From the IMG/VR virus record IMGVR_UViG_3300034018_003010: DNA of 64,000 nt. One strand, 5' to 3'. Positions 35,390 through 62,553 of the stretch are shown piece by piece (position 1 is the stretch's first letter; each line of letters begins with the position of its first letter). Position numbers and translations under genes: made by a program. The notes under the pieces are model-generated. The model saw only the letters and a program-made list of their open reading frames with translations. It made no database searches and was not told the DNA's origin. This stretch comes from a virus.

Positions 35390-36388
35390 TTATTGTGATA
35401 AAAACTCAAGCTTAATAGAGTCTGATATTATATTTATTTGATCTAGATAAGTAATAATATCATCAACTTCTTTATCTGAAATCGAATTGTTTTCAATGCA
35501 TATTTTAATTCCAGACTCTATTTCTAGAAGCTTCTCTTTTGCTGCACACAGGTGATCTAAAACACTTTGGTGTTGTAAATTTTTAACTTGTTTTTTAGAA
35601 GAATCTGGGCTTATTATTTCTGTCTCCTTTGCAAAATAACTTTTAATGTTTATAACACTATTATTTAGTTCAAAACAAAATATTTCATATGGTTTTATAT
35701 TATAAAAGTTTTTATAAAAATCAAATTCAAAACCTTTAGATTTCAATGTATTAATAGATGATAAAAATATTTCAAAAGTACTAAAAAATATAATTTGACC
35801 ACATTCTTTTCTAACATCTAAAAAGAATAATGGTCTATGTTTGTTTCTTGTTAATATTAATTTTTTAATTTTATAATTAGATTCAGCATAAGCTATAGAA
35901 AAATAACTATTTTTTGTATTATCAAACAAATACTTAATATTATTAAATATATTATTATCTTTTTCTAATACTCTTAATATTATTTCAGAATCGCATTCTG
36001 TTTTTACAGAATTTAATATTTTAAGATTTTGATATTCTTTAAAATTAATTAAACCATTATGTATAATTGCTTTTTTATAATCATCACTAACAAAAGGATG
36101 GTTGTTTTCATTTTCTGATGGTAATCCAACTCCTGTAGATGCTGCTCGACAATGAAATATTCCTAAATCTAAATTTTCTTCCCAAATATCTTGATAATGT
36201 TTTGTTTTTATAATATCTTTGCTTGGACCTGGTTGCTTGTAATAATAAACATTTCCATTTGTTGAACAGCAATAAAAACCAGCAGCATCTATGCCACGAA
36301 CTTGCATGGTTTCGTAAAGTTCTGTAATCAGAATACGACTTTTGTTTTGGTCTGTGCTTTCGCCTATAAATCCTAATATTCCACACAT
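35390..36388 (-). CDS. Class II glutamine amidotransferase domain protein
   Basis: MCGILG N-terminal nucleophile Cys; RGIDAAG; HCRAAS; NNHPF; HNG; CDSE. Confidence 0.92.
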   Translation of the reverse strand: MCGILGFIGESTDQNKSRILITELYETMQVRGIDAAGFYCCSTNGNVYYYKQPGPSKDIIKTKHYQDIWEENLDLGIFHCRAASTGVGLPSENENNHPFVSDDYKKAIIHNGLINFKEYQNLKILNSVKTECDSEIILRVLEKDNNIFNNIKYLFDNTKNSYFSIAYAESNYKIKKLILTRNKHRPLFFLDVRKECGQIIFFSTFEIFLSSINTLKSKGFEFDFYKNFYNIKPYEIFCFELNNSVINIKSYFAKETEIISPDSSKKQVKNLQHQSVLDHLCAAKEKLLEIESGIKICIENNSISDKEVDDIITYLDQINIISDSIKLEFLSQ

Positions 36389-36393
36389 TAATA

Positions 36394-36915
36394 TTAAATA
36401 GCGTTGGGATTTTGAATTTCAGATGGCTCTCCAAGAGGAGGAGCACCAGATGTATCAAATCCAGATATAGGTTGAGCCTGTGGATTTATATCAACAGGTT
36501 GTTTTTCGGTATTTCCAGAATCAGGAGTTTGACTTGTTTGAGATTCTTTTCCAGAAGTTCCCAAATCATTCAAAGGAACATTCAATTTCATCGCTATACT
36601 TTTGATTTCTTCAACAGAATCGGAAAGAACTTTTTCAAAATCATCTTTTTCTTCTAGCAGCTTAGATAATGCAATTCCTACTTTTTGAAGATTTTTAAAA
36701 TATTTTTTATTACTAGAGTCCCAATGACCTCTAAGTATAGATTGTATATTGGAAATAATTGTTTCAATTGTATTGCAAGTTGTTGTCATTCCAATATCTT
36801 TATAATTTTCTTGCAATTCTTGTAAATCTTTTAACAAATTACCAATTTTATCTCCTAATAGTTGGAGATTTTCTAATATTATAAATTTTTTGAAATTTAA
36901 CATTTCATTGTACAT
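36394..36915 (-). CDS. Hypothetical protein with capsid-targeting-like N-terminus
   Basis: MLNFKKFIILEN. Confidence 0.65.
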   Translation of the reverse strand: MYNEMLNFKKFIILENLQLLGDKIGNLLKDLQELQENYKDIGMTTTCNTIETIISNIQSILRGHWDSSNKKYFKNLQKVGIALSKLLEEKDDFEKVLSDSVEEIKSIAMKLNVPLNDLGTSGKESQTSQTPDSGNTEKQPVDINPQAQPISGFDTSGAPPLGEPSEIQNPNAI

Positions 36916-36925
36916 AAAAAACTCT

Positions 36926-38572
36926 TTAATATGATATATTGGTATTTAGTGCTTCACCTTTCTTCTTTGCAGCATTTTCTACCAATCCAACAAATAAAGG
37001 ACTAGCTGCGGTCAATCTAGATTTGAATTCTGGGTGAGCTTGAGTAGCAACAAAATATGGATGAACAGATTTGTCCATCTCCATAATTTCAATAAGATTC
37101 GATTCTGGATTCCTTCCTGATACCACAAAACCTTTTGAAGCAAATTCCAACCTACTAACCAATTCGCTATTAACCTCATAACGATGACGATGTCTTTCGG
37201 ATATGTTCTTCTTCTTGTAATATTCACTTGCCAAGGAATCTTTTGCAACCTCACAAGAATAAGATCCAAGTCGCATTGTACCAGACTTTTTCTTAATAGA
37301 TTCTTGACCGGGAATAAAATGCACAACAGGATGCGTTGTGCTCTTGTCAAATTCTTCAGAGTTTGCGTCTTCCCAGCCTATGCTTCTGGCAAATTCAATT
37401 ACAGCACATTGCAATCCAAGACAGATTCCCAAGAATGGTATCTTCTTTTCTCGAACATATTTGATTGCTCTTATTTTACCTTCTACACCACGACTATCAA
37501 ATCCTCCAGGAACGATAAGGCCATCAATGTCGTTAAAAAATTCCTTAAGACACTTGGAATCCTTGCAATCTTCTACCTGCGCAGCGTTAATCCATGATAT
37601 ATCAACTTTTACATTTTTATTTACAGCAGCATGAAATACAGCCTCTTTAAGACTCAAATAAGCTTCATCAAAGTTGTCATACTTGTTTAATATTCCAATC
37701 CTAATTGTCTTCAAATCTTTATTTCCAATATATTTTTCTACCAAGTCACGATACTTGTGAATCCTGACACCATTTCTAGTCAAATGAAACTTATCAATAA
37801 TCAAATCGTCAACATGCCTGTTGTAAAATTCAATTGGAACTTGATAAACGGTAGGAACATCTGGTGCTTCAAATACCGCAGAACGAGGAACATTAGTTAT
37901 ATTTGAAATCTTTTCCATAATCTGATTTGGTATCTGCCTATCTGTTCGACAGAATAATATCTCAGGTTGCAAACCGCTGCTTTGCATACTTTGAACGGCT
38001 TGTTGTAAAGGCTTGGTTTTGAATTCCTTTATTGTTGGAATCCAAAGAACAGGAGCCACCAAAGAAACAATTACATCATTGGCATTCTTTTGTTTAAACT
38101 GCCGTATTGCTTCTAAAAATGGATAAGCCTCTGAATCCCCTACTGTACCTCCAATTTCAACTAAAACTATATCTGCGTCTTTTCCTAAGTCTTTAAGCCT
38201 GTCAATTATCTTGTTAGTAACATGAGGAACAACTTGAACAGTCTGTCCCAAATACTTGCCTTCTTCTTGCTCTTGTATTATCTCTTTATATACAGTGCCA
38301 GAAGTTAATATATTCTTAGAGCTAACTTGACAACCAATGATTCTTTCATAGGTTCCCAAATCAAGATCTGTTTCACTGCCATCGTCGCACAAAAACACCT
38401 CTCCATGCTCTCTAGGAGCAAGGATGCCAGCATTTGTATTCAAGTAAGGATCAAACTTAATAGGGACTATTTTTAAGCCTCTAAGACTCAAAAGAAGACC
38501 CAAGCTGGCTATAGACACGCCTTTACCTGTGCCGCTTATTACCCCACCACAGACTACAATGTATTTAGCCAT
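36926..38572 (-). CDS. pyrG: CTP synthase
   Basis: KYIVVCGGVISGTGKG, KFDPYLN, HGEVF, EIGGTVGD, KTKP, PGGF..RG, GICLG, ERHRHRYEVN, QAHPEF. Confidence 0.98.
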   Translation of the reverse strand: MAKYIVVCGGVISGTGKGVSIASLGLLLSLRGLKIVPIKFDPYLNTNAGILAPREHGEVFLCDDGSETDLDLGTYERIIGCQVSSKNILTSGTVYKEIIQEQEEGKYLGQTVQVVPHVTNKIIDRLKDLGKDADIVLVEIGGTVGDSEAYPFLEAIRQFKQKNANDVIVSLVAPVLWIPTIKEFKTKPLQQAVQSMQSSGLQPEILFCRTDRQIPNQIMEKISNITNVPRSAVFEAPDVPTVYQVPIEFYNRHVDDLIIDKFHLTRNGVRIHKYRDLVEKYIGNKDLKTIRIGILNKYDNFDEAYLSLKEAVFHAAVNKNVKVDISWINAAQVEDCKDSKCLKEFFNDIDGLIVPGGFDSRGVEGKIRAIKYVREKKIPFLGICLGLQCAVIEFARSIGWEDANSEEFDKSTTHPVVHFIPGQESIKKKSGTMRLGSYSCEVAKDSLASEYYKKKNISERHRHRYEVNSELVSRLEFASKGFVVSGRNPESNLIEIMEMDKSVHPYFVATQAHPEFKSRLTAASPLFVGLVENAAKKKGEALNTNISY

Positions 38573-38926: not shown

Positions 38927-41518
38927 TTAGCTCTCGCAACTTGTACAAGTCAGAATTGATCTTGAAAAAGCCTGGGCGGCATTAACGGATATCTGGTAAT
39001 AAAGACCCTTGATGCCCATTTTCCAGCCTTCAATAATCAAAGCATTAACATCTTTAGTAGGAACAGAAGGATGAATCATAAGGTTAAGACTTTGACCTTG
39101 ATCAATATACTTCTGTCTTTGTGCTGCCTGAATCATAATCTCTTTAGGACTAATTTCGGCAAAAGTTTTGAATACATTCTTCTCTTCTTCGGTAAGACAT
39201 TCCAAATGCTGGACGCTTCCGCCATTCATAAGAATGCTCTTCCATACTTCTTCAGTATCATGTCCCTTCGCTTTCAAAAGCTTCTCAAGCTCTGCATTCT
39301 TGATTGTAAATTTACCCTTTTGCAGATCCTTAATGTAATAGTTGGTTCTATGAGGTTCAATACCTTCGGAAACCTGTCCTAAAATAAACGCCGAAGATTT
39401 TGTAGGGGCTATAGCAAGAAGAGTAGTGTTTCTTCTGCCATATCCTTTGCATACTTCTGGCTCACCATATTCTTCTGCTAGCTTTGCACTGGCTTTATAT
39501 GCAGCTTCCTTGATGTTTTTTGCAATTTGAGTATTATGGAACTTGGCTTCCATACTCTCCCAAGGAATCATCTTGCTTTGTAAGTAGCTATGCCAGCCAA
39601 GCCAGCCAACACCAAGAGCACGATGCCTTTCGGCAAATTTAACAGCCCTTTCCATAAACTTAATCTTCTTGGCTTTTTCAATGAATTCTGTCATCACAGC
39701 ATCAAGAAGATAGACAAGAAGCTCTACGGCATCTGTGTCTTTCCATTCATCATAATAAAGAATATTCATACTACTTAAATCACAGACAAATGATTCGTAT
39801 TCATTGTCTGGCAAAAAAATTTCCTGACATAGATTGCTATGTGTAATTTTTAATTCTTTATCTTTATAGCAATCTGCTGTATTATTATTTGCATTGTCAA
39901 TAAATGAAATATATGGATAGCCAAAGTTGGCTCTCATTTCGAGAACTTTAGCCCACACCTTTCTTTTGTCTGCATCTCCATTAATCATTTCTTCCATCCA
40001 ATAGTCTGGAACACAGACTCCGAATGAAAGATCTTGAATTGGGAATCCTTCAGTTCTTATCTGAAGGAATTCCATAATGTCGGCATGGTCAATAGGAAGA
40101 TAAGCAGCGAAGTTACCACGACGAGTGTTTCCACACACCATCACTCTGTCTTGATATCTAACTAAAAGCCTACCCTCTGGTACTATAGCACAATAAACTT
40201 TTCCTTTGTAATATTCTTCAGTTTTATTAATTGACTCGCCCCCTCTGTAGGAGTTTTCGCTTATATTTATACAATGCAAATCACGCCTGTTGCCGTAGGC
40301 AGGGCGAATTCTAACTCTGGTTTTTAAATCAGCCAATGCAGCAATTGCTTGAACAATATCTATATTTGTTTTATCTATGCTTGAATATGTAATGCATCCT
40401 CCATGAGATACACTTCCATCCCAACAAGATAGTTCCTCAATAAATTCTTGAGCCCAAATTCCATTTATTTCTTCAATTCTTACCCATTCAGAAAATGTTT
40501 TCTTTTTGACAGATTCTTCATATTCAAAATTAATACTAATTGTTTTATCTGGATTGGTTTTCTTTTCGTATTTAATTCCAATATCGTTTAGGATTTTTTC
40601 TAAGCGTTGAACCTTTCTTTCTTTAGCAAAATGAAAACGAATTTTTCTATTTGCGTCATCTTTTCTTCCATCCGCTTGATATGCAATCCTAAGTCTATCA
40701 AAATTGCTTAGACCATCTCCTTTGCCAGCCCAACCAGCTAATGGAATTCTATTGTCTCTATGGAGATTTAAATCCTGTGCTTCTACAATTTCAGTATTGG
40801 ATGGCCAATAACGCTCCCTGTCTTGCATTTTTCTGCGGCAAATAACCATGCGATGGTTAGGAGTCACCTTGATGGAAACAGAATTTTCAGTCTTTTTGCC
40901 AGAAAGACAAATTAAATTTCCTTCAAAATCATTTACAACCATTTCATATTTTTCAGTAAATGAAACATTATTAAATTCGTCAAGCTGCGCCAATTTATCA
41001 GTTGGCAAAACTTCTCTAAAATCTTTAAATCCATTATTTGTTAATACTTCAGTTCCTTCTATATAACAACTGCCTTGGCTAACAATTTGAATTAGGTTTT
41101 CAAACGCTTGCATAAAGTGAACAGCACCAGAGCTTTCTCCGTTGTTTCTGATAGATGCTCCTCTAGGTCTTAAGTTTCCAAATGTAGCAGAGGTTCCTCC
41201 ACCATATTTGGTCATCATTGCTACTTCTGCCCAAGTATATGCAATAGATTCCATAGAATCACCTATAGTGCTGCCAAAGCAACTAATGGGCAATCCTCTT
41301 TCATTGCCAAAGTTTGTCCAAATAGGAGTTGATAGGCTGTACCAACCCTTTTGAAAGTTTTCTTTAAACTTGGCAGCAAATCCCGGTTTGTTAAGCAGCT
41401 TTTCGGCAGTATTACAAATCTCATCAACTCTTTGATCGACAGTTTGACCATCGACCAAATAGTCTCTCTCAAGGAACACTTGAGACATTTCAGTAAGCCA
41501 TCTGTAGTTGCTGTTCAT
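38927..41518 (-). CDS. nrdA: Ribonucleotide reductase class I alpha subunit, intein-containing, no ATP-cone
   Basis: LPISC, GGGTS, SNLCQEI (active-site NxCxE), AIAPT.SS, QKYIDQGQSLN, LYY, C-terminal CTSC. Confidence 0.96.
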   Translation of the reverse strand: MNSNYRWLTEMSQVFLERDYLVDGQTVDQRVDEICNTAEKLLNKPGFAAKFKENFQKGWYSLSTPIWTNFGNERGLPISCFGSTIGDSMESIAYTWAEVAMMTKYGGGTSATFGNLRPRGASIRNNGESSGAVHFMQAFENLIQIVSQGSCYIEGTEVLTNNGFKDFREVLPTDKLAQLDEFNNVSFTEKYEMVVNDFEGNLICLSGKKTENSVSIKVTPNHRMVICRRKMQDRERYWPSNTEIVEAQDLNLHRDNRIPLAGWAGKGDGLSNFDRLRIAYQADGRKDDANRKIRFHFAKERKVQRLEKILNDIGIKYEKKTNPDKTISINFEYEESVKKKTFSEWVRIEEINGIWAQEFIEELSCWDGSVSHGGCITYSSIDKTNIDIVQAIAALADLKTRVRIRPAYGNRRDLHCINISENSYRGGESINKTEEYYKGKVYCAIVPEGRLLVRYQDRVMVCGNTRRGNFAAYLPIDHADIMEFLQIRTEGFPIQDLSFGVCVPDYWMEEMINGDADKRKVWAKVLEMRANFGYPYISFIDNANNNTADCYKDKELKITHSNLCQEIFLPDNEYESFVCDLSSMNILYYDEWKDTDAVELLVYLLDAVMTEFIEKAKKIKFMERAVKFAERHRALGVGWLGWHSYLQSKMIPWESMEAKFHNTQIAKNIKEAAYKASAKLAEEYGEPEVCKGYGRRNTTLLAIAPTKSSAFILGQVSEGIEPHRTNYYIKDLQKGKFTIKNAELEKLLKAKGHDTEEVWKSILMNGGSVQHLECLTEEEKNVFKTFAEISPKEIMIQAAQRQKYIDQGQSLNLMIHPSVPTKDVNALIIEGWKMGIKGLYYQISVNAAQAFSRSILTCTSCES
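40127..41068 (-). mobile_element. 314-aa intein with LAGLIDADG-type endonuclease in nrdA
   Basis: SQGS|CYIEGTEVLT..VTPNHRM..YQADG..LSCWDG..VYCAIVPEG.LLVR..VMVCGN|TRRG. Confidence 0.92.
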
Positions 41519-47872: not shown

Positions 47873-49285
47873 ATGGCGCACATTACTGTAAACAATGATA
47901 TAAGTATTTTGCAAACAGAAAATCAAGATTTATTGAAGTTCTTGTTTGAGCAACTTCGTTTCCGTGACATATCTTATTTTCATAACCCAAGATACAAAGC
48001 AAAACTTTGGGATGGCTTTACAAACTTTTTTAATAAAAACAATGGCAAGTTTTTAAGCGGTTTACTTCCAGAAGTAATTGGCGCTTGCAAGCATTTTGGA
48101 GAGCACCCAACTTACAAAGACAATAGAACAAAAATTGATTTCGCTATAAAGGAAATAGACAAAGACTTTTTAAAACCTTTTACTCCTAAAGAAGAAAAAG
48201 TTATAACACTTGAAAATTATCAAGTCGAATTAGTTAATCAATCAATTAAAAACAAAAGAGGTATTATATTTGCTCCCACAAGTTCTGGGAAGTCACTAAC
48301 AATGCTTTCGATACTAAAATCTTTACCGCCAAATACAAAAACTCTTATATTGCAAAATAGAAAAACACTTGCTGCACAAAATTACGATGAATATGTAAAA
48401 TGGGGGTTGAAAAATGTAGGAAGAATATGGCAAGGCTATAATGAACCAAATATATTTACCGTATCAACTGTTCAATCAATTGAAAAAGCAGAACATATTT
48501 TAGCAGATACCGAAGTTCTTCTAGTTGATGAAATTCATGATATGATGAGCGCTGGACCTAAAAACATCTACAGAAAACTAAAAAATTGCTCTGTTAGAAT
48601 TGCAGTTAGCGCAACTCCGTTTAAACACGGAGAAAAAGATAAGATACAAAAATTTTATGTTAAGGGGTTTTTTGGACCCGTATTCAAAATACAATCTGCT
48701 GAAGGAGGGGTTCTAAAGACAAAAGAACTACAGAGTAGAGGAAGACTATCTAAAAGCAAGTGCTATTTTCACACAATAAAAGAGCCAGCTCTTGACTATG
48801 AAATTTATATCGATGCTGTTACAAAAGGCTTGGTAGAAAACGATATTTTTCACCAAAAAGTAGTCGAATTAGTAATGAACATGAAAGGTCGCAGTCTTAT
48901 CCTTGTAGAGAGAATTGCTCATGGTGATGTATTGAAAAATTTAATGCCTCATGCTCATTGGGTAAAAGGCGAGGACAACAATGAAACCAGGAAAGAAGTT
49001 ATTGATAAACTTCAAAAATCAGAAAATTGTGTAGCTATAGCTACTCATGGTATATTTAATACAGGAATTAACGTATTTGTTCACAACCTCGTCAATGCTG
49101 CCGGGGGGCAAGCAGAACATCTTATTATTCAAAGAATGGGCAGAGGATTAAGAACAGCAGATGATAAAAATATATTAAACTACCATGATTTTGTATTTGA
49201 TATTAATCCTTATTTGTATAAGCATAGCAAAAAAAGAATTAAAATTCTAAAAGATGAGGGTCATGATGTTGAAGTTTTAGATTAA
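47873..49285 (+). CDS. uvsW: SF2 helicase, UvsW-like
   Basis: WDG, YQ..PTSSGKS, VDEIH, SAT, TGIN, QRMGRGLR. Confidence 0.9.
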   Translation: MAHITVNNDISILQTENQDLLKFLFEQLRFRDISYFHNPRYKAKLWDGFTNFFNKNNGKFLSGLLPEVIGACKHFGEHPTYKDNRTKIDFAIKEIDKDFLKPFTPKEEKVITLENYQVELVNQSIKNKRGIIFAPTSSGKSLTMLSILKSLPPNTKTLILQNRKTLAAQNYDEYVKWGLKNVGRIWQGYNEPNIFTVSTVQSIEKAEHILADTEVLLVDEIHDMMSAGPKNIYRKLKNCSVRIAVSATPFKHGEKDKIQKFYVKGFFGPVFKIQSAEGGVLKTKELQSRGRLSKSKCYFHTIKEPALDYEIYIDAVTKGLVENDIFHQKVVELVMNMKGRSLILVERIAHGDVLKNLMPHAHWVKGEDNNETRKEVIDKLQKSENCVAIATHGIFNTGINVFVHNLVNAAGGQAEHLIIQRMGRGLRTADDKNILNYHDFVFDINPYLYKHSKKRIKILKDEGHDVEVLD

Positions 49286-49560
49286 TTTTCCAAACTTCTT
49301 GCTAAATTAGACAAAGTACAATTTTTAGATGTTATGCAAATATCTATTTCATCTTTTTTAGAATCATCTAATTTGTCATACATAAAATTGCTTTTTATGA
49401 TTTCTTCAATCATTTTTATAGTCTTTTCATCAAAATCTTTTAATTGCTTTGAATTAAAATCTTTATTTGATATATTCATTTTAGGTTGGATTAAATCCAA
49501 CAAAGATTTCTTTGCTTGCTTGTAATCTTTTTCTTCTAACCAAATTTTAAAGCTAGTCAT
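49282..49560 (-). CDS. Small protein with capsid-targeting-like N-terminus
   Basis: MTSFKIWLEE. Confidence 0.65.
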   Translation of the reverse strand: MTSFKIWLEEKDYKQAKKSLLDLIQPKMNISNKDFNSKQLKDFDEKTIKMIEEIIKSNFMYDKLDDSKKDEIDICITSKNCTLSNLARSLEN

Positions 49561-49561
49561 G

Positions 49562-49575
49562 ATAAATATATTTAT
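49562..49575. promoter_or_regulatory. Palindromic pair of TAAATA boxes between divergent genes
   Basis: ATAAATATATTTAT between ATG 49560 (-) and ATG 49574 (+). Confidence 0.6.
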
Positions 49576-50404
49576 GTTTAAACAGCTTTATTTTAAGGAA
49601 TGGCTAGGAACGAGCCCAGCAGCTTTATTTGGTTTTCCATCAAATGCCAAAACACATAAAGCAACTACCAGTTTATATGAAGAAGAACCTCTGGAACCAC
49701 TAAAAATTTCAGGAATTTTAACCGAACTTGTTAATTTGGGAAAAATAGGAAATAAGAAACCTTCTAGAAAATTTGAAAGCAAAGTTGTTTATGGCGAAAC
49801 TATAAATCCAGTAGGAAATTATACTGTAGAAGTTTCTCCTTTTGGATCTTTGAAAATAATAATAAGAAGAGAAATAACTGATTTAACTGGTGAAAGTGTT
49901 GCCATTTGCAAGAATATACTTCCTTTAATTAATGATTACAATCATATAGGAGATATGGATATCGAAGAAGAACTTAGAATTGCTGTTAATGTAAATAGCT
50001 ATCTTGAATCTGTAGACAAAACACCATTAGAATCTCCAAATGCAAAATATACTGGATTAAGAAAATTAACTTTAGACATAGCTTCTGAAGTAAGAGCTAG
50101 ACATCCGGCTGTTATGATTTATAATGGAACAATTGAAAATAATGAAAATAATTACACAATATATTTTTCATTTACTGGAAACGGTGTTGAATCTCCAAGT
50201 GCTAATAGAGCAGAACAATTTAATATCAATTTGGCATATTACCCAGAAAAAGGATTAATAAGATGTTGGGGAAATGATATATTATCTCCTACTAAACAAA
50301 GATTGTGGAAACTTCAACCAAGCGAGTGGGATGAATATTATTCTCCATCTCAACCCAATAAAGAAATTGTAGAAACAATAAGAAATGCATTCTCAACTTA
50401 CTAA
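49574..50404 (+). CDS. Hypothetical protein with capsid-targeting-like N-terminus
   Basis: MFKQLYFKEWL. Confidence 0.7.
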   Translation: MFKQLYFKEWLGTSPAALFGFPSNAKTHKATTSLYEEEPLEPLKISGILTELVNLGKIGNKKPSRKFESKVVYGETINPVGNYTVEVSPFGSLKIIIRREITDLTGESVAICKNILPLINDYNHIGDMDIEEELRIAVNVNSYLESVDKTPLESPNAKYTGLRKLTLDIASEVRARHPAVMIYNGTIENNENNYTIYFSFTGNGVESPSANRAEQFNINLAYYPEKGLIRCWGNDILSPTKQRLWKLQPSEWDEYYSPSQPNKEIVETIRNAFSTY

Positions 50405-51090
50405 GCAGACTCAAAATCAAACATTTTATTATAAACAGTTTGTACTTTTTCTAAGTTATAGTCATCATATTTTTTAGTATTTGATAGATCTTTTATATCT
50501 TGAAGAAGTTCTGGTTTTATTATTTTTATCCACTTTGAAACCAAAATATACAAAGGACTTATTTTTTTCAATATAACAAATTTTAAAATATCAAGACTTG
50601 AGTTTATATATTTTTCTTTTGTTACATCACTTCCTAGTATTGATAAAATTGTTTTTTTTGTTTTATCTAATTCCATTTCAATATTGCTTTCAACAACATG
50701 ATATTCAATTTTTGTTGTGGCGTTTTCAACAGCTACTTTTTTCTTCCATAGCATCCATCTTTTTTCAGATTGTTCTCCATGAAGACAATTAGCTTCAACT
50801 ACCACTTGGTGGCCATCATTTTGTATTTTTTTAAGAATCTCAAGCTGTGCTCTCATGTATAAAACAAATTGAAATCCTTTAAAGGTTTTATTTTTATCTC
50901 TTACAAACTTTAAAATATTCTTAAACAAATATGTTTTTCTAATATCTCCTTTTCTACCACTAATCTTTTGGTGTCTGTAGTTTGGAAATATCTTGTGTCT
51001 TAATTCAACCCAATGACAAGTGAGTTGATAAGCCAGAGTTTCTTCTGGAGTGAAGTTGCCTTCTACAGCGATCTGGGGGTCGTATTGCAT
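50401..51090 (-). CDS. Hypothetical protein, possibly gp59-like helicase loader
   Basis: AYQL..F.NY..K..G..RKTYLFK pattern weakly resembles the gp59 N-terminus; divergent from the polA/helicase operon. Confidence 0.45.
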   Translation of the reverse strand: MQYDPQIAVEGNFTPEETLAYQLTCHWVELRHKIFPNYRHQKISGRKGDIRKTYLFKNILKFVRDKNKTFKGFQFVLYMRAQLEILKKIQNDGHQVVVEANCLHGEQSEKRWMLWKKKVAVENATTKIEYHVVESNIEMELDKTKKTILSILGSDVTKEKYINSSLDILKFVILKKISPLYILVSKWIKIIKPELLQDIKDLSNTKKYDDYNLEKVQTVYNKMFDFESA

Positions 51091-51135: not shown

Positions 51136-51144
51136 TCAATTAAG

Positions 51145-51600
51145 TCAAGGAGTAAGGCCAAGTGTCTGCCTGAACTAGCTTGACGGTTTTAAGTGGTTAA
51201 ATTTATTTAAACACTTGAGACTAAAACCATGTTGAGACGGTACCCCCTGTCAAGGCCCGTTAGGAAATCTGGGATCCTAACGATTCAACAACGCAGATGA
51301 GGTGAGCCTTTACCTGCCTAATTTCGGCAGGCAGTTATGTGAAGAGTAAAGTATCTTAGAACTGAAAAGTTTTTAGAACTAAATCTCTTCTAAGAACAAA
51401 AACTTAAGAATCTTGATTCTTGTTAGTTTGTTTTATGCATAACAGGGTAAAGGTTAAGATTCTGTTCAAAAAGACACATTAGTTTTATCTAAGTTGTTTT
51501 TACAGCTTAGGCGAAACCAAGTGGATTAGACTTTAAAAAGGTTTAAGTAATCTTTACTTAATCCTTTTATTTTTGTCTTACCCCCCTTGGCCTGCCCCCC
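51145..51600 (+). ncRNA. Large structured non-coding RNA of unknown class (~450 nt)
   Basis: Longest ORF-free gap in the window. Nested helices incl. 51155-62/51586-93, 51162-67/51472-77, 51185-95/51212-22, 51258-65/51275-82, 51305-15/51445-55, 51334-40/51437-43, 51488-96/51503-11; G-U pairs work only on the + strand. Confidence 0.75.
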
Positions 51601-51678
51601 AGTGCGGACTGATAATTACATTTAATGTAATCATATAATCTGTTTGTTTGATTCCTCTAGAAGTGTTAAAGTTCAAGT

Positions 51679-52998
51679 ATGAAAAACCTTTGCGATTTGA
51701 CTTCCAATCTTTATGAGGCTTGTGGAGTTGAGAAGTTTTTGTTTTGTGTTTGGACACCAGCAGATCCAGATTCCACAACTTTGGTTGATTGCAATATTAA
51801 ATTACAAATATTTGGGGTTAAAGGTTATAATCAAATATTTAATATAAATCCAGATAATGCTTTGTTGGTAGCTACTATGTTGACGACAGTTATAAATGAA
51901 AAAAATATTATGGTTGTTGGTTATAACTTTAAAAATCTTTACACATTATTTGGCAGGCTATGTGGTAAAAATATTTTCTTTAAGTATTTTTATGATTTGT
52001 ATTGGTATGAATCTTACAATTCTCTGCCTAGTTCAGTAGGCAACATCGGCATGGCGACTAAAAACTTTATTACCTTTACTAAAGATGCCAGCGCTATAAA
52101 ATTATATAAACTAATTTATATGCAATTAATTCAACAGGTTGTTCCTGCTTTGGAATCTTTCATTTTAAGGCACGATTTTAAGTGTGTGCTGGTTTATCCG
52201 AATTATGTGGTCGAAGGCCAAGAGAACGGAAGATTGCTGTGTAACAACGAAAAAAAGTACTCTTACAACCCACACTCGTTGGGGGGTGATAAATCGGCTC
52301 TTACATTGCCTCAAAAATACACATACTTTATGCAGATGGATTACAAAAATATGGAAGTAGCTGTTTTGGCAGAAATAGCTAATGACGAGAATCTTCTTAA
52401 GATAGTAAATAATAGCGAAGATGTATATGCGGATATATTTTACAAAGTTACTGGTGATATTAATTTTGAAAATGCAAGGGAATTCGGCAAAAAAATGTTT
52501 TTGCCGGTTATATATGGACAGACAGCAAACAGTCTGTCAAAAGTTCTCGATATTTCATTAGATCAATCAGAAAAATTTATAAACAATTTAAGGGAGCAGT
52601 TCCCAGCATCTTTTCATTTTGTTGAAAAGAGTTCAAATGAAGCAAGATCTCAAGGTTTTTGTTTAGATTATTTTGGTAGGAAAAGAATTTTCGATGATTC
52701 TACTTATTACAAAGCAAGAAATTTTGTTGTACAATCTCCAGCATCATTGATTTGTTTATATTATTTGGTAAAATTATACAAGGGTGCTAAAAATTTGTTT
52801 TCTTTAGTTTTTCATGTGCATGATGGTTACTTTATGGCTATTTCCAAAGAAAATTTGAAAGATGGTTATAAAGTTGCAAAAAATATACTTGAGAGTGAAA
52901 ACGAATTGATTCCATCCCTTAAATTAAAAGTAAGTTCCAAGATAGGTCTAAGATTAGACAATATGCAAAGTACTGAAAAACACAAAGGGAAAAAATGA
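51679..52998 (+). CDS. Minimal family-A DNA polymerase (thumb-less, degenerate 3'-5' exonuclease)
   Basis: NGRLL, motif A MDYKNMEVAVLA, motif B REFGKKMFLPVIYG, DYFGRKR, NFVVQS, motif C VHDG; only 439 aa. Confidence 0.88.
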   Translation: MKNLCDLTSNLYEACGVEKFLFCVWTPADPDSTTLVDCNIKLQIFGVKGYNQIFNINPDNALLVATMLTTVINEKNIMVVGYNFKNLYTLFGRLCGKNIFFKYFYDLYWYESYNSLPSSVGNIGMATKNFITFTKDASAIKLYKLIYMQLIQQVVPALESFILRHDFKCVLVYPNYVVEGQENGRLLCNNEKKYSYNPHSLGGDKSALTLPQKYTYFMQMDYKNMEVAVLAEIANDENLLKIVNNSEDVYADIFYKVTGDINFENAREFGKKMFLPVIYGQTANSLSKVLDISLDQSEKFINNLREQFPASFHFVEKSSNEARSQGFCLDYFGRKRIFDDSTYYKARNFVVQSPASLICLYYLVKLYKGAKNLFSLVFHVHDGYFMAISKENLKDGYKVAKNILESENELIPSLKLKVSSKIGLRLDNMQSTEKHKGKK

Positions 52999-53555
52999 GT
53001 TCGATATATAAAAACTTTCCAATTACTTCGGAAGAGTATACAAAGTTAGATAAAAAGTTTGGTAAACTTTGTTATTATGCGGCTTGGCAATTAACTAGGA
53101 AGAATTGTAATAATAATCATCAATATGATTTAGATGATTTTCAACAAGAATTGATGTTAGCTGTGTTGAGAGCTGGAAGCTATTATAAGAGGCAGATTTT
53201 TTTGAATTCTTGTTTTGACACTTTATTACTTAATAAAAAATTAGACAAAGTTTCAAAGTTAGTTTTGGAAGAGTTAATAAATTTGTGGAAGAACAGAACT
53301 AGGCACGGTGCGAATAGGCAGACTTTTGGCGACTATCAAGAATTAGTTCTTGAAAAAATATGTAATAGTTTTTTAAAAATCAATGAGCGACCTGATAAAG
53401 AAAGGTCTTTGCAATTTGATTTGAAATTTTCGACATACTGCAAACAAATCGTATGGAATTGCCAAAGAAATTTAGGTAAAAAGATTACAAGAGAAAAGCC
53501 ACTGAGAGGTGGCCAGGTCAGTATTTCTGATCATGATTATTTAGTAGATGGGTGA
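52995..53555 (+). CDS. Sigma-factor region-2-like protein
   Basis: KFGKLCYYAAW..DLDDFQQELMLAVLRA..KFSTYCKQIVWN. Confidence 0.55.
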   Translation: MSSIYKNFPITSEEYTKLDKKFGKLCYYAAWQLTRKNCNNNHQYDLDDFQQELMLAVLRAGSYYKRQIFLNSCFDTLLLNKKLDKVSKLVLEELINLWKNRTRHGANRQTFGDYQELVLEKICNSFLKINERPDKERSLQFDLKFSTYCKQIVWNCQRNLGKKITREKPLRGGQVSISDHDYLVDG

Positions 53556-53558
53556 AAA

Positions 53559-55064
53559 GTGAGTGATCTCAGCGAACAGGAAAAAGAGACACTCAAAGCC
53601 CTTATAACTACAGACTCTCAAAAGATTAAGTTCAAGTGGGATGATAATTTTCAAAGAAGAATTTTAGCTTTAATATTGACCGACAGCTTTTTTTTGATTC
53701 AGGCTAGAGCTTTGATAGTGCCAGAGTATTTTTCAAACGATTCTCATGTTGATGTGGCTACTGTTTTGTATGCTTATTTTGATACTTATAAAACAATGCC
53801 TGACAAAGAGTTCATGAAACACCTTGTGTCAGAAAAAATAAAAGGCAGATCGGATGCAATAAAGCTTTATTATAAAAATGAATTGGAAAACATCTACGAA
53901 TCTTTTATTCCTCCTTCAGAAATAAAACCAGCTTTGCTTGACAAACTACTTGCATTTGCCAAGATGCAGGCCTTGCGTATTGCTATGGATTTATCACAAA
54001 AAGATTTAAAAACAAATAATCCTGAAGATGAATCTACATGGACTACGATATGTGAAAGATTTCAAAACGCTTTAAATGTCAATAAGAATTTTGAAATAGG
54101 TTTTGAATATTTTAATAACTTGCAAGAAATTTTTGCTGATCTTGAAAATGACATCAAGCCAGAAGATAAGTTTACTTCTGGATTTTCCAAGATTGATGAT
54201 AGTCTTTCTTTTGGAGGATGCCGAAGAGGCGAGATTTATTCTTTTATAGGTTTGCCTGGAAAAGGTAAATCTTTGTGTTTGGTGAAAAGCGCTGTAGAAA
54301 ATATCAAGGTGGGCAAAAAGGTTGTGTATCTTTCTTTGGAAATGGATTGCATGTCCATAGCCAGAAGATTCACTAGTCAATTTGCTATGGTTCCTCATGC
54401 TCACATTTCAAAGCACAAGAGAGAAATTGAAGATCTTATTAATATAAATACACGAGAATTCATTGATAAAAATCGTTTTATAATTAAACAATTTCCTTCT
54501 GGCACTCTTGATATATCTGGAATTAGATCATATTTAGAGCAAATTATAATTAGTGGTTTTAGACCAGACTTGTTAATTATAGATTATCCGGGGGAAATGA
54601 AAGACGTTCCTGGAATTTCTACATGGGAATCAAAGTATCGTATTATGCGAGACTTGCGTGGCCTTGCCATAATTCATCAAATGTGTGTTTATGTTGCAAT
54701 TCAACCAAATAAGCTTGCAGCAAGCCACACATTAGAAGAGTACATTGATGAAAACAGCATTGGCGGGTCGTTTGATCAAGTCAAGCCTTTAGATGGTTTG
54801 TGGAGCATAAATCAAACCAACGATGAGACAACTGCTGGATATGGTAGAATTTTTGTTGTAAAGCACAGAAATGGCAAGGCTAAGTTTGCGTTTCCTATAA
54901 AATATGATAAAGAAACTTTAGACATCAACGAATGTTCTGAAGGAGAATATAGAATAGCTTTGCACAATATACACAATCAAAAAGCAGATGTTGCCAATGT
55001 AGACGGAAGAAAGAATTCAAAGAAAAAAGAACCTAAAGAGGAGGACGTGGATTATGCAGAGTGA
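53559..55064 (+). CDS. Replicative DnaB-like helicase (T4 gp41-like)
   Basis: TSGFSKIDD..GG.RRGE, GLPGKGKS, YLSLEM, IKQFP, LIIDY, VKHRNG. Confidence 0.93.
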   Translation: MSDLSEQEKETLKALITTDSQKIKFKWDDNFQRRILALILTDSFFLIQARALIVPEYFSNDSHVDVATVLYAYFDTYKTMPDKEFMKHLVSEKIKGRSDAIKLYYKNELENIYESFIPPSEIKPALLDKLLAFAKMQALRIAMDLSQKDLKTNNPEDESTWTTICERFQNALNVNKNFEIGFEYFNNLQEIFADLENDIKPEDKFTSGFSKIDDSLSFGGCRRGEIYSFIGLPGKGKSLCLVKSAVENIKVGKKVVYLSLEMDCMSIARRFTSQFAMVPHAHISKHKREIEDLININTREFIDKNRFIIKQFPSGTLDISGIRSYLEQIIISGFRPDLLIIDYPGEMKDVPGISTWESKYRIMRDLRGLAIIHQMCVYVAIQPNKLAASHTLEEYIDENSIGGSFDQVKPLDGLWSINQTNDETTAGYGRIFVVKHRNGKAKFAFPIKYDKETLDINECSEGEYRIALHNIHNQKADVANVDGRKNSKKKEPKEEDVDYAE

Positions 55065-55488
55065 AGAGTTTTCAATCGGAGATCAAAAGTTTGTTTTAGA
55101 TCCACAAAATCTAAAATTTACTGATGCCACTTTGAACAAATTTTTTGAGAATGTTTCGGGTATTATTGATTATATTGGAGTGGCACATGCCGAAGCCAAT
55201 CGTCAATACACCTTGTTAGAGCACTCCTACAAACAAAAGTACATAGAGAAGTTTAAAGAATTTAAAGAGGCGGGCAAAAGTGATAAAACATCAGAGTTGT
55301 ATGCCGAGGGAGATATAGAGGTTTCAGTATTAAAGGAAAAAATTATAAATGCCAAATATAACAAAGATAGAATTTACGCACATTTAAACGCATTGAATAG
55401 TGCTAGAGAAGATGCTCATAATCGTGGTCATATGTTACGAAAAGAAATGGACAAATTGAATATTGACATTGTGTCAAATGGATTTTGA
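55054..55488 (+). CDS. Recombination mediator UvsY-like
   Basis: Helical ~140-aa protein after the helicase (KSDKTSELYAEGD..LNALNSARE). Confidence 0.6.
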   Translation: MQSEEFSIGDQKFVLDPQNLKFTDATLNKFFENVSGIIDYIGVAHAEANRQYTLLEHSYKQKYIEKFKEFKEAGKSDKTSELYAEGDIEVSVLKEKIINAKYNKDRIYAHLNALNSAREDAHNRGHMLRKEMDKLNIDIVSNGF

Positions 55489-56001: not shown

Positions 56002-56877
56002 ATGAAATCTATAGATGATAATAATTCAGCATATAATTTGGATATGCTGAGGCAGTCTAATGACATAGCCTACAAATGGGCTAAACATTTTAAGTTTTCT
56101 TCAAATAAGTATTTGACAAGTGTTATTAAAATGTACAAAAATAAAAGTTTTTTTTGTGCAAAACTTAGTAAGAATAATCGTAAACTTTTTTTAGAAGATT
56201 ATACAAAAATGTTTTATGCTATTGAAGTAGAAAACGAAATTATTAAACAGTATTATCATGTAATTATACATATAATTAAAAAATTAAAAATAGAGCAATC
56301 TTTAGTAGAATATTACATCGAAATTGGAATGTATACCTTGAGACAATCTGTTTGGAATTATAGAACTCATGAAGCTAATGTTAAATTTATTACTTTTTGC
56401 TATAATGGCATTAATATGAGATTGCGTGGGGAAAGATCTAAGTTGACAATGTATAACAATAGAAAAAAGAGAGTTCTAGAGAGGCTTGAGTCTGATATTA
56501 TAAAAAAAGAAGATTATAACGGTTTTTCTAATATATGTGTTTTCAACCATGATGTAAATGAAAAGATTGAAGAGGAAGAAGTTCAATCTTTGTTTTCAAA
56601 AGCAATAGACATCTCAAACTTGCAAGAAGATGAGCTTTTCTTGCTTACAGAGTATATGAATAGAGATTATTTAAACCAGAATTGGAATGCAATTTATAGG
56701 AATAAGTTTAAAAACACTGGTAAGAATGGAAATACAATATCTAGACAAGGAGTTCATAACAAGTTGATGGCTATTCAAAGAAAGATATACTTGTCACTTG
56801 TAAGATTGGGCTATAATGTTGACATAAAGAAAGTTTCTTTTACAAGAAGATATAATGAATTTGAGGTTGTTTTATGA
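56002..56877 (+). CDS. Sigma70-family-like factor
   Basis: IIKQYYHVIIHII..EIGMYTLRQSVWNY..KFITFCY (region 2); ISRQGVHNK (region-4-like); GAGG SD before ATG 56002. Confidence 0.6.
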   Translation: MKSIDDNNSAYNLDMLRQSNDIAYKWAKHFKFSSNKYLTSVIKMYKNKSFFCAKLSKNNRKLFLEDYTKMFYAIEVENEIIKQYYHVIIHIIKKLKIEQSLVEYYIEIGMYTLRQSVWNYRTHEANVKFITFCYNGINMRLRGERSKLTMYNNRKKRVLERLESDIIKKEDYNGFSNICVFNHDVNEKIEEEEVQSLFSKAIDISNLQEDELFLLTEYMNRDYLNQNWNAIYRNKFKNTGKNGNTISRQGVHNKLMAIQRKIYLSLVRLGYNVDIKKVSFTRRYNEFEVVL

Positions 56878-57452
56878 TAGGTGAAAAATTTGTAGCAAAG
56901 TACATGCGTCTTGCCAAACAATTTGGCGAGGATTACAATCCTTGTTATTCTAGGAAAATAGGCGCTATAGCTGTTGATACAAATATCAATAAGATTGTTG
57001 CAACGGGGTATAATGGCCCTCCAAGAAAAACTCCGCATTGTGATTCTAAAGATCATTTGATTAATATTGTTTGGCCTCAATTAACAGAAAATGAAAAGTC
57101 TTTGTTGCCTGAAAATATTGACACACAAGATAAATTTGTCGAAAAATATGAAAATTGCCAAACATGCCCAAGAAAACTTATAAAGGCTGAATCTGGAAAA
57201 AGGTTAGAATTGTGTAGTTGTGCCCACGCAGAAGTAAATTGTATCGTAAATGCAAGTCAAAACCTATATGGATGCACAATGTTTTGCTGGTGTCCTCTTC
57301 CATGTATCGAATGTACAAAAATAATTATTAATGCTGGCATAAAAGAAGTTCATTGTTTTAAAGAGCCTCAAGATTATTCTGTTGGAAGTAGATATCTTTT
57401 TGCAAAAGCTGGAGTAAACATTCTAGAATATAATAAGGAAGATTTTAATTAA
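56874..57452 (+). CDS. dCMP deaminase
   Basis: SRKIGA, TGYNG, HAEVN, PCIEC..IINAGI. Confidence 0.93.
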   Translation: MIGEKFVAKYMRLAKQFGEDYNPCYSRKIGAIAVDTNINKIVATGYNGPPRKTPHCDSKDHLINIVWPQLTENEKSLLPENIDTQDKFVEKYENCQTCPRKLIKAESGKRLELCSCAHAEVNCIVNASQNLYGCTMFCWCPLPCIECTKIIINAGIKEVHCFKEPQDYSVGSRYLFAKAGVNILEYNKEDFN

Positions 57453-57469: not shown

Positions 57470-58234
57470 ATGAGTTTTGAAGTTGTATACAAATATTATG
57501 AAAAACTAAAGGATTCTTTTGATTATGATAGGGAAAATCCATCTACTTTCAAGAAAGTGTATGGGAAATCCAGCGAAGATTACACACTAGAAAAACTTGC
57601 TTTCAACATATATCAGCAGATGGCAAGAAGAGATATTTTTATTTACGATGTGGAAATTTATGAGTTTGCTAAAAAGAAAATAAATTTTAAGCAAAACAAG
57701 ACAGACCTTATTATTAAAAATAAAAAATTCTCGCCAAAAACAGGAACTCTTGAAGATTTAGATGTTGAAGAAGAAGTTGGTCCGCCTTCTTCAAATTGTA
57801 CGAATCTTGCTATACAGCAACCTGCTATGACGAATCCTGTAGTTTGTACACAGGAATCTGTAAATTTGGCTCCGCCTATTCGTTCACAGCAAAATTTAAC
57901 AAATATTGCTTCAAAGCCAAGAAGAGTAATAAAGATGGTGATGTTTGATCCAATTTCGCCCAAAGAAAGAGCTAAATTTCCTTATAAGTTTACACCAGGA
58001 AAAAAGTATCCTGTTTATAAAGAACGCATATCTCCCAGTGGAATAGGCATGTTAATTGAAACCGTTGATGATTTGAACAACTCGGTTTCTGTTTTAGATG
58101 AGCTTTTTGTAGTTGAAGATATGAATCTTGTTGGAGATAATGAAGCTGGATTTAGCGAATCGAGAAGTGGTTTGTCAGACAAAACATTGAATTGGAGCGG
58201 TGTAATAAAAGGCGATGTTCCAAATTTGAGATGA
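57470..58234 (+). CDS. Hypothetical protein
   Basis: 254-aa ORF within the operon. Confidence 0.7.
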   Translation: MSFEVVYKYYEKLKDSFDYDRENPSTFKKVYGKSSEDYTLEKLAFNIYQQMARRDIFIYDVEIYEFAKKKINFKQNKTDLIIKNKKFSPKTGTLEDLDVEEEVGPPSSNCTNLAIQQPAMTNPVVCTQESVNLAPPIRSQQNLTNIASKPRRVIKMVMFDPISPKERAKFPYKFTPGKKYPVYKERISPSGIGMLIETVDDLNNSVSVLDELFVVEDMNLVGDNEAGFSESRSGLSDKTLNWSGVIKGDVPNLR

Positions 58235-61644: not shown

Positions 61645-62553
61645 ATGTTTTCAAAATGTTATAGAAGATTTGGTGTTGAAATCGAATATAATTCTTTTGA
61701 TAAATTAAGCAGATCTGTCGGATTTAATGGATTGCCTAGCGGGATTTATAATATTGCAGACATTTTGTCCGATGTTTTAAAAGAAGAAATTGAAATTAAT
61801 AGATGGCACAATACAAATAATAACAATTTATGGGTTGTCAAGCCAGATTCTAGTTGTGGAATTGAAGTTTGCAGCCCTCCAAAAATACATCATAATGTTT
61901 TAGATCAAATATACAATAGCATTAATGCGATTTCAAAAAATAATTTTATTGAAGCTGATAATAGGTGTAGTTTTCATATTCATGTTGAAATTGAAGATTT
62001 TGATGATGAAAATTTAAAAAGTATAGTTTACAATTGGTTGATTTTTGAACCTATATTTTTTGCTTGCTGCTCATCTAACAGATGGATTAACAATTATTGC
62101 AAACCACTATCTTTTAGTTTTAATATTAGTAATACTGATTTTATTGATTCGATTTTAGATAGCTTGATGGAAAACAAGTATTTTGCAATAAATTTATGCA
62201 ACTACAAAAAAAAGAAAAAAAGAACTGTAGAAATACGAATAATGGGTGGAGAAGCGTGTTTATCTCCCGATTTAGCTTTAAATTGGTGTAAATTAATATT
62301 ATGCTTTGTAGAACAATGTAAAAAAAATACTTTAAAACCAAATTATTCTGATATAAATTATGGTAGTTTTAAAGACTTTGATATGTTAATGAACTTGGAT
62401 GATTTTTTTGGAAATAACAAAATGAAACTCTGGGTAAAAGAAAGGGTTAAAATTATATATGATATGTTTAAAGATTCGGCTGATTTAAATATTTTGACAT
62501 GGCTAAAGATAATTGAGAATTATGATGAAAGAAGAGGAGATTTTAATGCTTAA
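61645..62553 (+). CDS. Putative amidoligase (COOH-NH2 ligase, phiEco32-like)
   Basis: FGVEIE, WVVKPDSSCGIEVCSPP, CSFHIHV, KYFAIN, TVEIR. Confidence 0.85.
   Translation: MFSKCYRRFGVEIEYNSFDKLSRSVGFNGLPSGIYNIADILSDVLKEEIEINRWHNTNNNNLWVVKPDSSCGIEVCSPPKIHHNVLDQIYNSINAISKNNFIEADNRCSFHIHVEIEDFDDENLKSIVYNWLIFEPIFFACCSSNRWINNYCKPLSFSFNISNTDFIDSILDSLMENKYFAINLCNYKKKKKRTVEIRIMGGEACLSPDLALNWCKLILCFVEQCKKNTLKPNYSDINYGSFKDFDMLMNLDDFFGNNKMKLWVKERVKIIYDMFKDSADLNILTWLKIIENYDERRGDFNA

Follow-up and report, generated by a model that had tools for sequence, protein, structure and literature searches.

A compact family A DNA polymerase with a predicted hairpin in place of its thumb is carried by hundreds of giant lake and ocean phages

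The IMG/VR virus record IMGVR_UViG_3300034018_003010 encodes, within the stretch of 64,000 nucleotides analysed here (the window), a compact family A DNA polymerase of 439 residues (P0001; gene polA, 51679..52998, + strand). In family A polymerases, the grip on the duplex, processivity and frameshift fidelity are attributed to the thumb; according to the predicted structure of P0001, this subdomain is replaced by a short β-turn in an otherwise Klenow-like enzyme. The gene is carried by hundreds of giant lake and ocean phages, and we propose that its product acts as a distributive auxiliary polymerase, being neither a primase nor a lone replicase. That hundreds of the largest known phages should retain an apparently thumbless polymerase under selection raises the question of how labour is divided between two polymerases in huge phages. 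As a natural minimal polymerase core, the protein is also of interest for enzyme engineering.

Identification of the polymerase family

P0001 matches the Pfam profile PF00476 (DNA_pol_A) with an E-value of 2.5e-30 and a score of 106.1 bits against a curated cut-off of 34.3. The match is partial, since it covers profile positions 147-377 of 381 only (the C-terminal 60%), which correspond to residues 210-424. PHROG polymerase families match the same C-terminal part of the protein, and a sequence search of the PDB aligned residues 217-418 with residues 606-821 of Taq polymerase, comprising the palm and the fingers. A word-index search retrieved 203 homologs, and the best 120 of these are nearly all 420-455 residues long. 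By exhaustive profile search at E≤1e-30 we obtained 260 clusters at 50% identity that share the size and the thumb-deletion junction of P0001 and are distinct from the approximately 9,800 generic PolA matches found at 1e-10. Relatives of P0001 are encoded on 149 viral contigs, and the phage records among them reach 595 kb. For analysis at the residue level, 50 homologs with 30-82% identity to P0001 were aligned; positions were mapped to Taq polymerase with HMMER and to Klenow fragment by hhalign of the family profile against E. coli polA.

A β-hairpin is predicted at the position of the thumb

The AlphaFold2 model of P0001 (predicted local distance difference test score (pLDDT) 94.6, predicted template modelling score 0.93) superposes on KlenTaq from end to end, with residues 6-431 matching chain residues 297-832 (Z-score 31.7, root mean square deviation 2.7 Å, 391 of 538 residues aligned). 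On Bst large fragment, residues 1-430 match 303-876, with 407 of 580 residues aligned. Both superpositions (Z about 30-32), with which Foldseek agrees, leave approximately 150-170 residues of the target without a partner. The model consists of an α/β N-terminal domain up to about residue 135, a helix at residues 137-160, two strands at 163-165 and 170-174, the GRL segment and the palm. According to DSSP, the model has no helical hairpin, and hence no thumb, between helix 137-160 and GRL; instead, a turn joins the two strands. In this predicted Klenow-like fold the exonuclease-like domain, palm and fingers all superpose, and a hairpin stands where the thumb would be.

The helix at residues 137-160 (52087..52158, + strand) corresponds to the element that precedes the thumb in Pol I. 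It carries the PolA motif 1 pattern PLxxVLxxIE (family consensus YKxIYxPLITxVLPxIE, with P156 and E159 invariant), and a second hhalign hit aligns it to the Klenow sequence IEMPLVPVLSRIERNGVKID, ending at E541 and D548. Only 25 residues separate E159 from G184, compared with 126 residues between E541 and G667 in Klenow fragment; approximately 100 residues are missing, which is the size of a thumb. These values agree with an earlier note on this DNA, made from the sequence alone, which had placed the helix that normally starts the thumb (to residue 160) only about 25 residues from GRL in comparison with 120-130 in Pol I.

The junction itself (52159..52203, + strand), modelled as a β-hairpin in exchange for the roughly 100 residues of the thumb, has the same spacing in 50 of the 50 aligned homologs. 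None of the best 150 library representatives contains a thumb-sized insertion. Each of them matches P0001 in one uninterrupted stretch of equal length, which argues that no close relative keeps the thumb. Longer, thumb-bearing close relatives were not found either: proteins of at least 770 residues match as generic Pol I only, with 25-28% identity over less than half of the query. A separately encoded thumb was not detected in any recognisable form. The gene directly downstream of polA was considered as a source of the missing part and is unlikely to supply it; although the product of 186 residues is helical, it most resembles sigma-factor domain 2 in fold.

Absence of the thumb would weaken binding of the primer-template duplex, and distributive action is therefore expected. 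Deletion of the thumb tip in Klenow fragment is reported (Minnick et al. 1996, J Biol Chem) to lower DNA affinity, processivity and frameshift fidelity.

The polymerase active site is conserved

Motif 2 of Pol I, TGRLSS, is represented by G184, R185 and L186 (52228..52236, + strand), which align to Bst polymerase and to G667, R668 and L669 of Klenow fragment; the equivalent of R668 is the invariant R185. In motif A (52339..52356, + strand), the invariant D221 and E226 correspond to D705 and to the steric gate E710 in the Taq and Klenow alignments. Motif B, the O-helix (52477..52515, + strand), provides R267, K271, L275 and Y279 as counterparts of R754, K758, F762 and Y766, and the minor-groove sensors N845 and Q849 are matched by N348 and Q352. 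Motif C (52819..52827, + strand) aligns H381, D382 and G383 with H881, D882 and E883 and thus reads HDG instead of HDE; the third carboxylate of the motif is gone, and HDGY is invariant in the family. Throughout the 50-sequence alignment D106, P156, E159, G180, Q181, N183, G184, R185, P198, H199, D221, E226, K271, L275, G280, D330, R336, Q352, H381, D382, G383 and Y384 do not vary, and Y279 and N348 are nearly invariant. The Taq, Klenow and homolog alignments thereby uphold the earlier description of D221, D382 and R267/K271/Y279 as intact, and the Leu at the position of F762 and the HDG motif, both already remarked on, proved to be fixed among the homologs. Leu at position 762 is common among viral PolAs and linked to SNF2 helicases (PMC9069017, PMC10201439).

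Loss of the thumb and of the exonuclease acids, together with the exchange of E883 for Gly, might be taken as signs of decay, in which case P0001 would be a pseudogene product or a structural protein devoid of catalysis. However, the reading frame is intact, a length of 420-455 residues is maintained in hundreds of homologs down to 30% identity, and the key catalytic residues are invariant or nearly so. This constancy of length and catalytic residues rules out a pseudogene under relaxed selection, and a decaying or non-catalytic remnant is scarcely credible.

The exonuclease-like domain has lost its carboxylates

As judged by the model, the superposition and the alignments, residues 1-136 (51679..52086, + strand) form a vestigial 3'-5' exonuclease-like domain without catalytic carboxylates. 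Its secondary structure elements follow the order β-β-β-α-β-α-β-α in the model, which aligns from residues 1-6 onwards with the start of the vestigial exonuclease domain in KlenTaq and Bst polymerase. Two non-catalytic landmarks are kept, namely GxNxK in the ExoII frame and YDLxWxESY, the equivalent of FDTMLESY of Pol I. The carboxylates of the proofreading DEDD signature (ExoI DxE, ExoII Nx2-3(F/Y)D, ExoIII Yx3D), by contrast, are not kept in the family. The ExoI positions are V24 and T26, which vary across the family; in ExoII, GxNxK is followed by L87 at the position of D424, in a column that is hydrophobic throughout; and no YxxxD of ExoIII is conserved across the 50 aligned homologs. These residue assignments derive from a weak local profile alignment (hhalign E 0.53) that is backed by the whole-chain superposition. 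They are in line with the earlier observation of an ExoII-like GYNFKNL without its Asp and of no ExoI DxE.

A second polymerase and a primase in related phages

The earlier note had suggested looking for a separate PolB or PolC and a primase elsewhere in the genome. We followed this up in five near-complete relatives of 436-595 kb and found DnaE-type polymerase genes in four of them and no PolB match in any. All five contain exactly one match to PF00476, and in every case it is the compact enzyme. DnaE-type genes are present also on contigs G001 and G004 of incomplete relatives. In G001 (record of L002, a close relative in synteny with the window), a split DnaE-type gene is located about 33 kb downstream of polA. 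By synteny this position falls outside the 64-kb window and probably also past the end of its contig; the longest contig with this protein measures 143.7 kb. An open reading frame (ORF) with a Toprim domain, 336-382 residues long and thus of the size of T4 gp61, occurs in four of the five near-complete relatives at a distance of approximately 100-240 kb from polA. Among about 40 ORFs of the window that were scanned there is no primase family match, as the earlier note had stated; given how far the Toprim primase of the relatives lies from polA, this absence reflects gene placement only.

The DnaE-type pieces of G001 are found at 81317-81631 and 84851-85867. In G001, G004, G006, G007 and G008, the DnaE-type polymerase is distributed over 2-3 ORFs several kb apart (for example, 446 and 858 residues).

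On the basis of the split DnaE-type polymerase and the gp61-like primase encoded elsewhere in most complete relatives, we propose that P0001 is an active, primer-dependent, exonuclease-deficient and distributive auxiliary polymerase, suited to short extensions and handing over to the DnaE-type enzyme. We regard this as somewhat better than an even proposition, in which catalysis, low processivity and the division of labour are all predicted properties. The core of the enzyme, a dead exonuclease-like fold with palm and fingers, would carry out template-directed DNA synthesis and extend 3' ends over short distances without proofreading, for instance at origin R-loops, recombination D-loops or gaps between Okazaki fragments. 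A role at D-loops would go along with the UvsX-like recombinase and the gp32-like single-stranded DNA-binding protein (SSB) encoded in the same gene array as polA. Bulk synthesis would fall to the split DnaE-type polymerase and priming to the gp61-like primase, whose genes would lie in other parts of the genome, and P0001 would serve a huge, T4-like phage of freshwater as its second DNA polymerase. The earlier opinion that P0001 is unlikely to be a processive replicase alone gains support from the missing thumb, the missing proofreading and the DnaE-type polymerase of most relatives. The suggestion that it might make primers does not, in view of the Toprim primase in four of five relatives and of E226 and the minor-groove sensors, which are those of an ordinary templated polymerase.

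Several observations weigh against an auxiliary role. The DnaE-type gene is seen in relatives and not for the phage of the window itself, whose contig seems to end a few kb past the window. One relative, G005 (the record of L036; 532,729 bp and rated complete), yields no PolB or DnaE-type match (PF00136, PF07733, PF17657), and the compact PolA is its only recognisable DNA polymerase. The structure is a predicted one, and the members of the family are known as sequences alone. Furthermore, for divPolA1, a published polymerase class of similar design, the gene context was judged more replication-like than that of 'regular' polymerases (Yutin et al., PMC11348598).

The main rival explanation builds on the same observations. 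It holds that the compact PolA is the principal replicative polymerase and receives processivity in trans from the DnaB-like helicase, from the SSB or from a clamp-like factor that escaped recognition, leaving another role to the DnaE-type enzyme. Besides the situation in G005 and the remark on divPolA1, it can draw on the position of polA at the head of the most conserved replication gene array and on conserved neighbours of 229, 281, 144 and 254 residues that could be accessory factors. Yet for family A it would be without precedent to copy 0.4-0.6 Mb with neither proofreading nor a thumb; most relatives do encode a DnaE-type polymerase, and no clamp-binding motif or partner was found. Altogether, a replicase helped in trans appears unlikely, though it deserves serious attention.

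polA heads a conserved replication gene array

On the + strand, polA opens a densely packed array, in which it is followed by the 186-residue gene, a DnaB-like helicase, three unknown genes, a dCMP deaminase, two further unknown genes, the gp32-like SSB and the UvsX-like recombinase. This order is conserved in up to 81 loci, so the earlier view of polA as the head of an operon with the replicative helicase holds for the window and well beyond it. The DnaB-like replicative helicase (53559..55064, + strand; PF03796 E 5.8e-11, phrog_19 E 2e-55) is present in 77 of the 81 loci, and neither Pfam nor PHROG gives a primase domain match on it. SNF2 and Dda helicases are encoded upstream of polA, the SNF2 helicase at 47873-49285, two genes away.

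This setting also bears on the idea that P0001 serves in repair or damage tolerance, filling gaps, bypassing lesions or coping with modified bases without any role at the fork. An open thumbless cleft without exonuclease activity, with the Leu762 and HDG variants fixed, would suit such a task. The window also carries numerous genes for nucleotide modification (dCMP deaminase, CTP synthase, amidoligase, GATase and a Mom-like protein), and SbcCD, UvsX and a PDDEXK nuclease are encoded nearby. A core role in replication nevertheless fits better with a gene that is strictly linked to the helicase and SSB array and universally present in the lineage, and we consider a pure repair enzyme improbable.

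The gene immediately downstream of polA (52995..53555, + strand), which encodes the 186-residue protein P0121, overlaps it by 4 nucleotides in the window, as it often does in the other loci. In each of the 81 loci it lies downstream of polA on the same strand; where both ORFs are delimited (80 loci), it starts no more than 100 bp from polA in 78 (median gap 7 bp). The protein is 47-81% identical where polA is only 29-51% identical. Its AlphaFold2 model is all-helical (pLDDT 85.7), and in a scan of PDB structures independent of Foldseek the matches were mainly to sigma-factor domain 2, with SigB at Z 7.6 and others down to 5.7 (SigE, sigma70, sigma28 and extracytoplasmic function sigma factors). 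Leads from the Atlas point to Sigma70_r2, and a Foldseek search against the PDB returned no match at E≤0.001. The protein displays the motifs YYKRQ and LWxNRTRHGANRQKFG on a sigma-domain-2-like fold with an insertion. Z values of this order are modest when a protein is helical, and we therefore call it only probably sigma-like, with a size near that of T4 gp55, rather than a polymerase subunit. Prediction of a complex between P0001 and the 186-residue protein gave no support, a result that counts neither for nor against their pairing.

In the loci L059, L067 and L069, polA and the 186-residue gene are 0.9, 5.5 and 3.7 kb apart, in comparison with the median of 7 bp, which points to an insertion of possibly mobile DNA.

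Four further proteins adjoin polA or the helicase. They comprise 229 residues (50401..51090, - strand, divergent from polA and present in 74 of 81 loci), 281 residues (49559-50404, + strand), 144 residues (55054-55488, + strand) and 254 residues (57470-58234, + strand), and are conserved there in 47-74 of the 81 loci. None of the four has a match in Pfam, PHROG or the PDB sequences, including profile searches against the latter. For the 229-residue protein, a Pfam scan of 22 homologs gave nothing consistent, and the Atlas offers one weak lead, T4 gp59 (0.85).

A structured RNA precedes polA in one sub-clade

The 588-nucleotide gap between the divergent 229-residue gene and polA harbours a conserved structured RNA of about 445 nucleotides (51136..51580, + strand) with a core at 51222-51336. 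The gap folds much better than shuffled sequences (minimum free energy z -5.8), and its nucleotide sequence is conserved in blocks even where the polA protein of a relative is only 42-51% identical. In the 115-nucleotide core there are 27 consensus pairs, 19 of which show changes on both sides; 89% of the cells are paired, as opposed to 72% in shuffles and 28-49% in slid controls. G-U pairs in the core assign the RNA to the + strand. A conserved hairpin followed by a T-run at approximately 51537-51580 marks its end, after which comes a conserved C-rich 30-mer (51581-51610). The sites at which covariance models placed the core are all upstream of polA, namely in the window and in 11 related loci, with a single marginal hit besides, and a second-round model run over all loci showed no wider spread. 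In distant loci the noncoding gap upstream of polA is variable, and in several it is absent. Rfam gave no real match on the upstream interval. The RNA may serve the operon as a leader or regulator, or it may be an origin transcript.

At the ColE1 origin, RNA II is extended by Pol I. P0001 could likewise be an initiation enzyme that extends the upstream structured RNA, or it could be a PolA-derived primase comparable to CCPol-MP. The covarying RNA with its terminator-like hairpin lies 100-540 nucleotides upstream of polA in the sub-clade of the window, and the divergent arrangement of genes at this gap would suit such a function; CCPol-MP is a precedent for priming by a trimmed family A polymerase (PMC10201439). 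However, relatives possess a conventional Toprim primase, CCPol lacks the exonuclease fold that P0001 keeps, and the downstream partner of polA is sigma-like with no MP-type β-barrel. Moreover, detection of the RNA is limited to 12-13 of 81 loci, and in several distant ones polA is not preceded by any noncoding gap. We thus regard an initiation enzyme as rather improbable.

A more elaborate proposal by analogy, which we find very doubtful, is that the region from 51.1 to 53.0 kb constitutes a self-contained replication-initiation module. The RNA of about 445 nucleotides, made where the genes diverge, would act as a pre-primer resembling ColE1 RNA II, be extended by the thumbless polymerase specialised for this task, whose open cleft might accommodate an RNA-DNA hybrid, and be handed over to the DnaE-type replicase, and the sigma-like protein would tie this step to transcription.

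The host phage and the wider window

The window derives from a tailed phage, several components of which are T4-like. Its structural genes include a gp18-like sheath, a gp15-like sheath stabiliser and a T4-type baseplate protein. Genes for replication and recombination encode gp46/47-like SbcCD, Dda-like and SNF2 helicases, the DnaB-like helicase, the gp32-like SSB and the UvsX-like recombinase, and a PDDEXK nuclease is likewise found in the surroundings of polA, along with SbcCD and UvsX. Nucleotide metabolism is represented by ribonucleotide reductase, CTP synthase and dCMP deaminase. According to CheckV, contigs of relatives with 100-225 kb are only 15-52% complete, and the family occurs also on records of 436-595 kb, which together indicate that the window stems from a huge phage. 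The public runs that contain the stretch are lake and freshwater metagenomes, and no RNA runs are listed among them.

Other features of the window are recorded here in passing. In the large subunit of ribonucleotide reductase (863 residues, 38927-41518, - strand), the Pfam barrel domain is matched in four separate stretches, and a sub-threshold LAGLIDADG_3 match at residues 276-324 may reflect an intein or a homing-endonuclease insertion. Candidates for the modification of nucleotides or DNA are located at 13855-15612 (- strand), 35390-38572 (- strand), 56874-57452 (+ strand) and 61645-62553 (+ strand). The modification set consists of a combined DUF7487 and Mom-like protein (with HNH-type PHROG matches), GATase, CTP synthase, dCMP deaminase and amidoligase, and may point to modified DNA bases. 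The segment 3-9785 (+ strand) encodes two giant proteins, one of 1586 residues (5' open, with RCC1-like repeats) and one of 1530 residues with 13 He_PIG Ig-like domains, and is characterized by a higher G+C content and a strong negative GC skew.

Comparison with known polymerases

T7-type replicative PolAs, with Tyr762, a thioredoxin-binding insertion in the thumb and a gp4-type primase-helicase, are unlike P0001, which has L275, no thumb in the model and a DnaB-like helicase. Viral PolA clades with Leu762 (Schmidt 2014; Nasko 2018, PMC6302109; Keown 2022, PMC9069017; position B3 in Czernecki 2023, PMC10201439) share that residue and a frequent linkage to SNF2 as seen here, but their enzymes comprise 560-760 residues, possess a thumb and mostly carry an exonuclease domain. 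In the parts of the study by Czernecki et al. that were consulted, 'broken' thumbs are described and a thumbless cluster is not mentioned (PMC10201439). The same study presents CCPol-MP of staphylococcal SCCmec elements as a trimmed PolA that acts as a primase; it resembles the present system in that a family A polymerase of reduced size goes together with a small partner protein and a helicase (Cch2). There, however, CCPol has lost most of the exonuclease domain and its partner MP is a β-barrel, whereas P0001 has lost the thumb, keeps the exonuclease fold and has a sigma-like neighbour.

In structural terms, KlenTaq and Bst large fragment are the best full-length matches (Z 29-32), with an inactive exonuclease fold and canonical palm and fingers; they differ from P0001 in a complete thumb of about 100 residues, in Phe762 and in an HDE motif C. 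divPolA2 of barbaviruses is a second divergent PolA without a homologous thumb that exists beside a regular polymerase. In contrast to P0001, it has no exonuclease domain, and it features a novel N-terminal globular domain, variable gene neighbourhoods and a resemblance to RNA polymerase (PMC11348598).

The closest parallel in design is divPolA1 (Yutin et al. 2024, PMC11348598), in which the catalytic residues of the palm are kept, the thumb is truncated and the three exonuclease aspartates are replaced. Its gene stands first in a conserved series of replication genes, in genomes that encode a regular polymerase (family A, B or C) as well. P0001 agrees with divPolA1 in its length of about 440 residues, the preserved palm, the truncated thumb, the loss of the exonuclease acids and the first place in an array with SSB, recombinase and DnaB. 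The type gene, immuto_3-5A gene 1, encodes 441 residues and is followed by genes for SSB, recombinase and DnaB. In sequence the two are only marginally similar (BLASTP E 0.15; hhalign probability 43% and E 2.5e-4, in palm and fingers only), whereas the P0001 family is far closer to E. coli Klenow fragment (hhalign 99.6%, E 2.8e-23); this comparison covers the immuto type member, with the further representatives LR796625 and MK892584 lying outside it. Motif C reads HDGY in the P0001 family and YDAF in the immuto protein, and the junction measures 4-6 residues in contrast to about 20 retained there, by our reading of the immuto sequence. Immuto genes 2 and 3, the two downstream of the polymerase, have no homology to the neighbours of P0001 by hhalign, and the hosts are phages of about 0.4-0.6 Mb versus 155-190 kb for divPolA1.

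Given the same design and the marginal sequence similarity, we file the P0001 family as a probable member or sister family of the divPolA1 class. The thumbless design itself is not new, having been reported, if only briefly, as divPolA1 in 2024 (PMC11348598). To it the present analysis adds a large discrete family in phages of about 0.4-0.6 Mb with a fixed deletion junction, the strict link of polA to a sigma-like gene, the split DnaE-type polymerase and separate primase in relatives, and a conserved structured RNA directly upstream of polA in one sub-clade.

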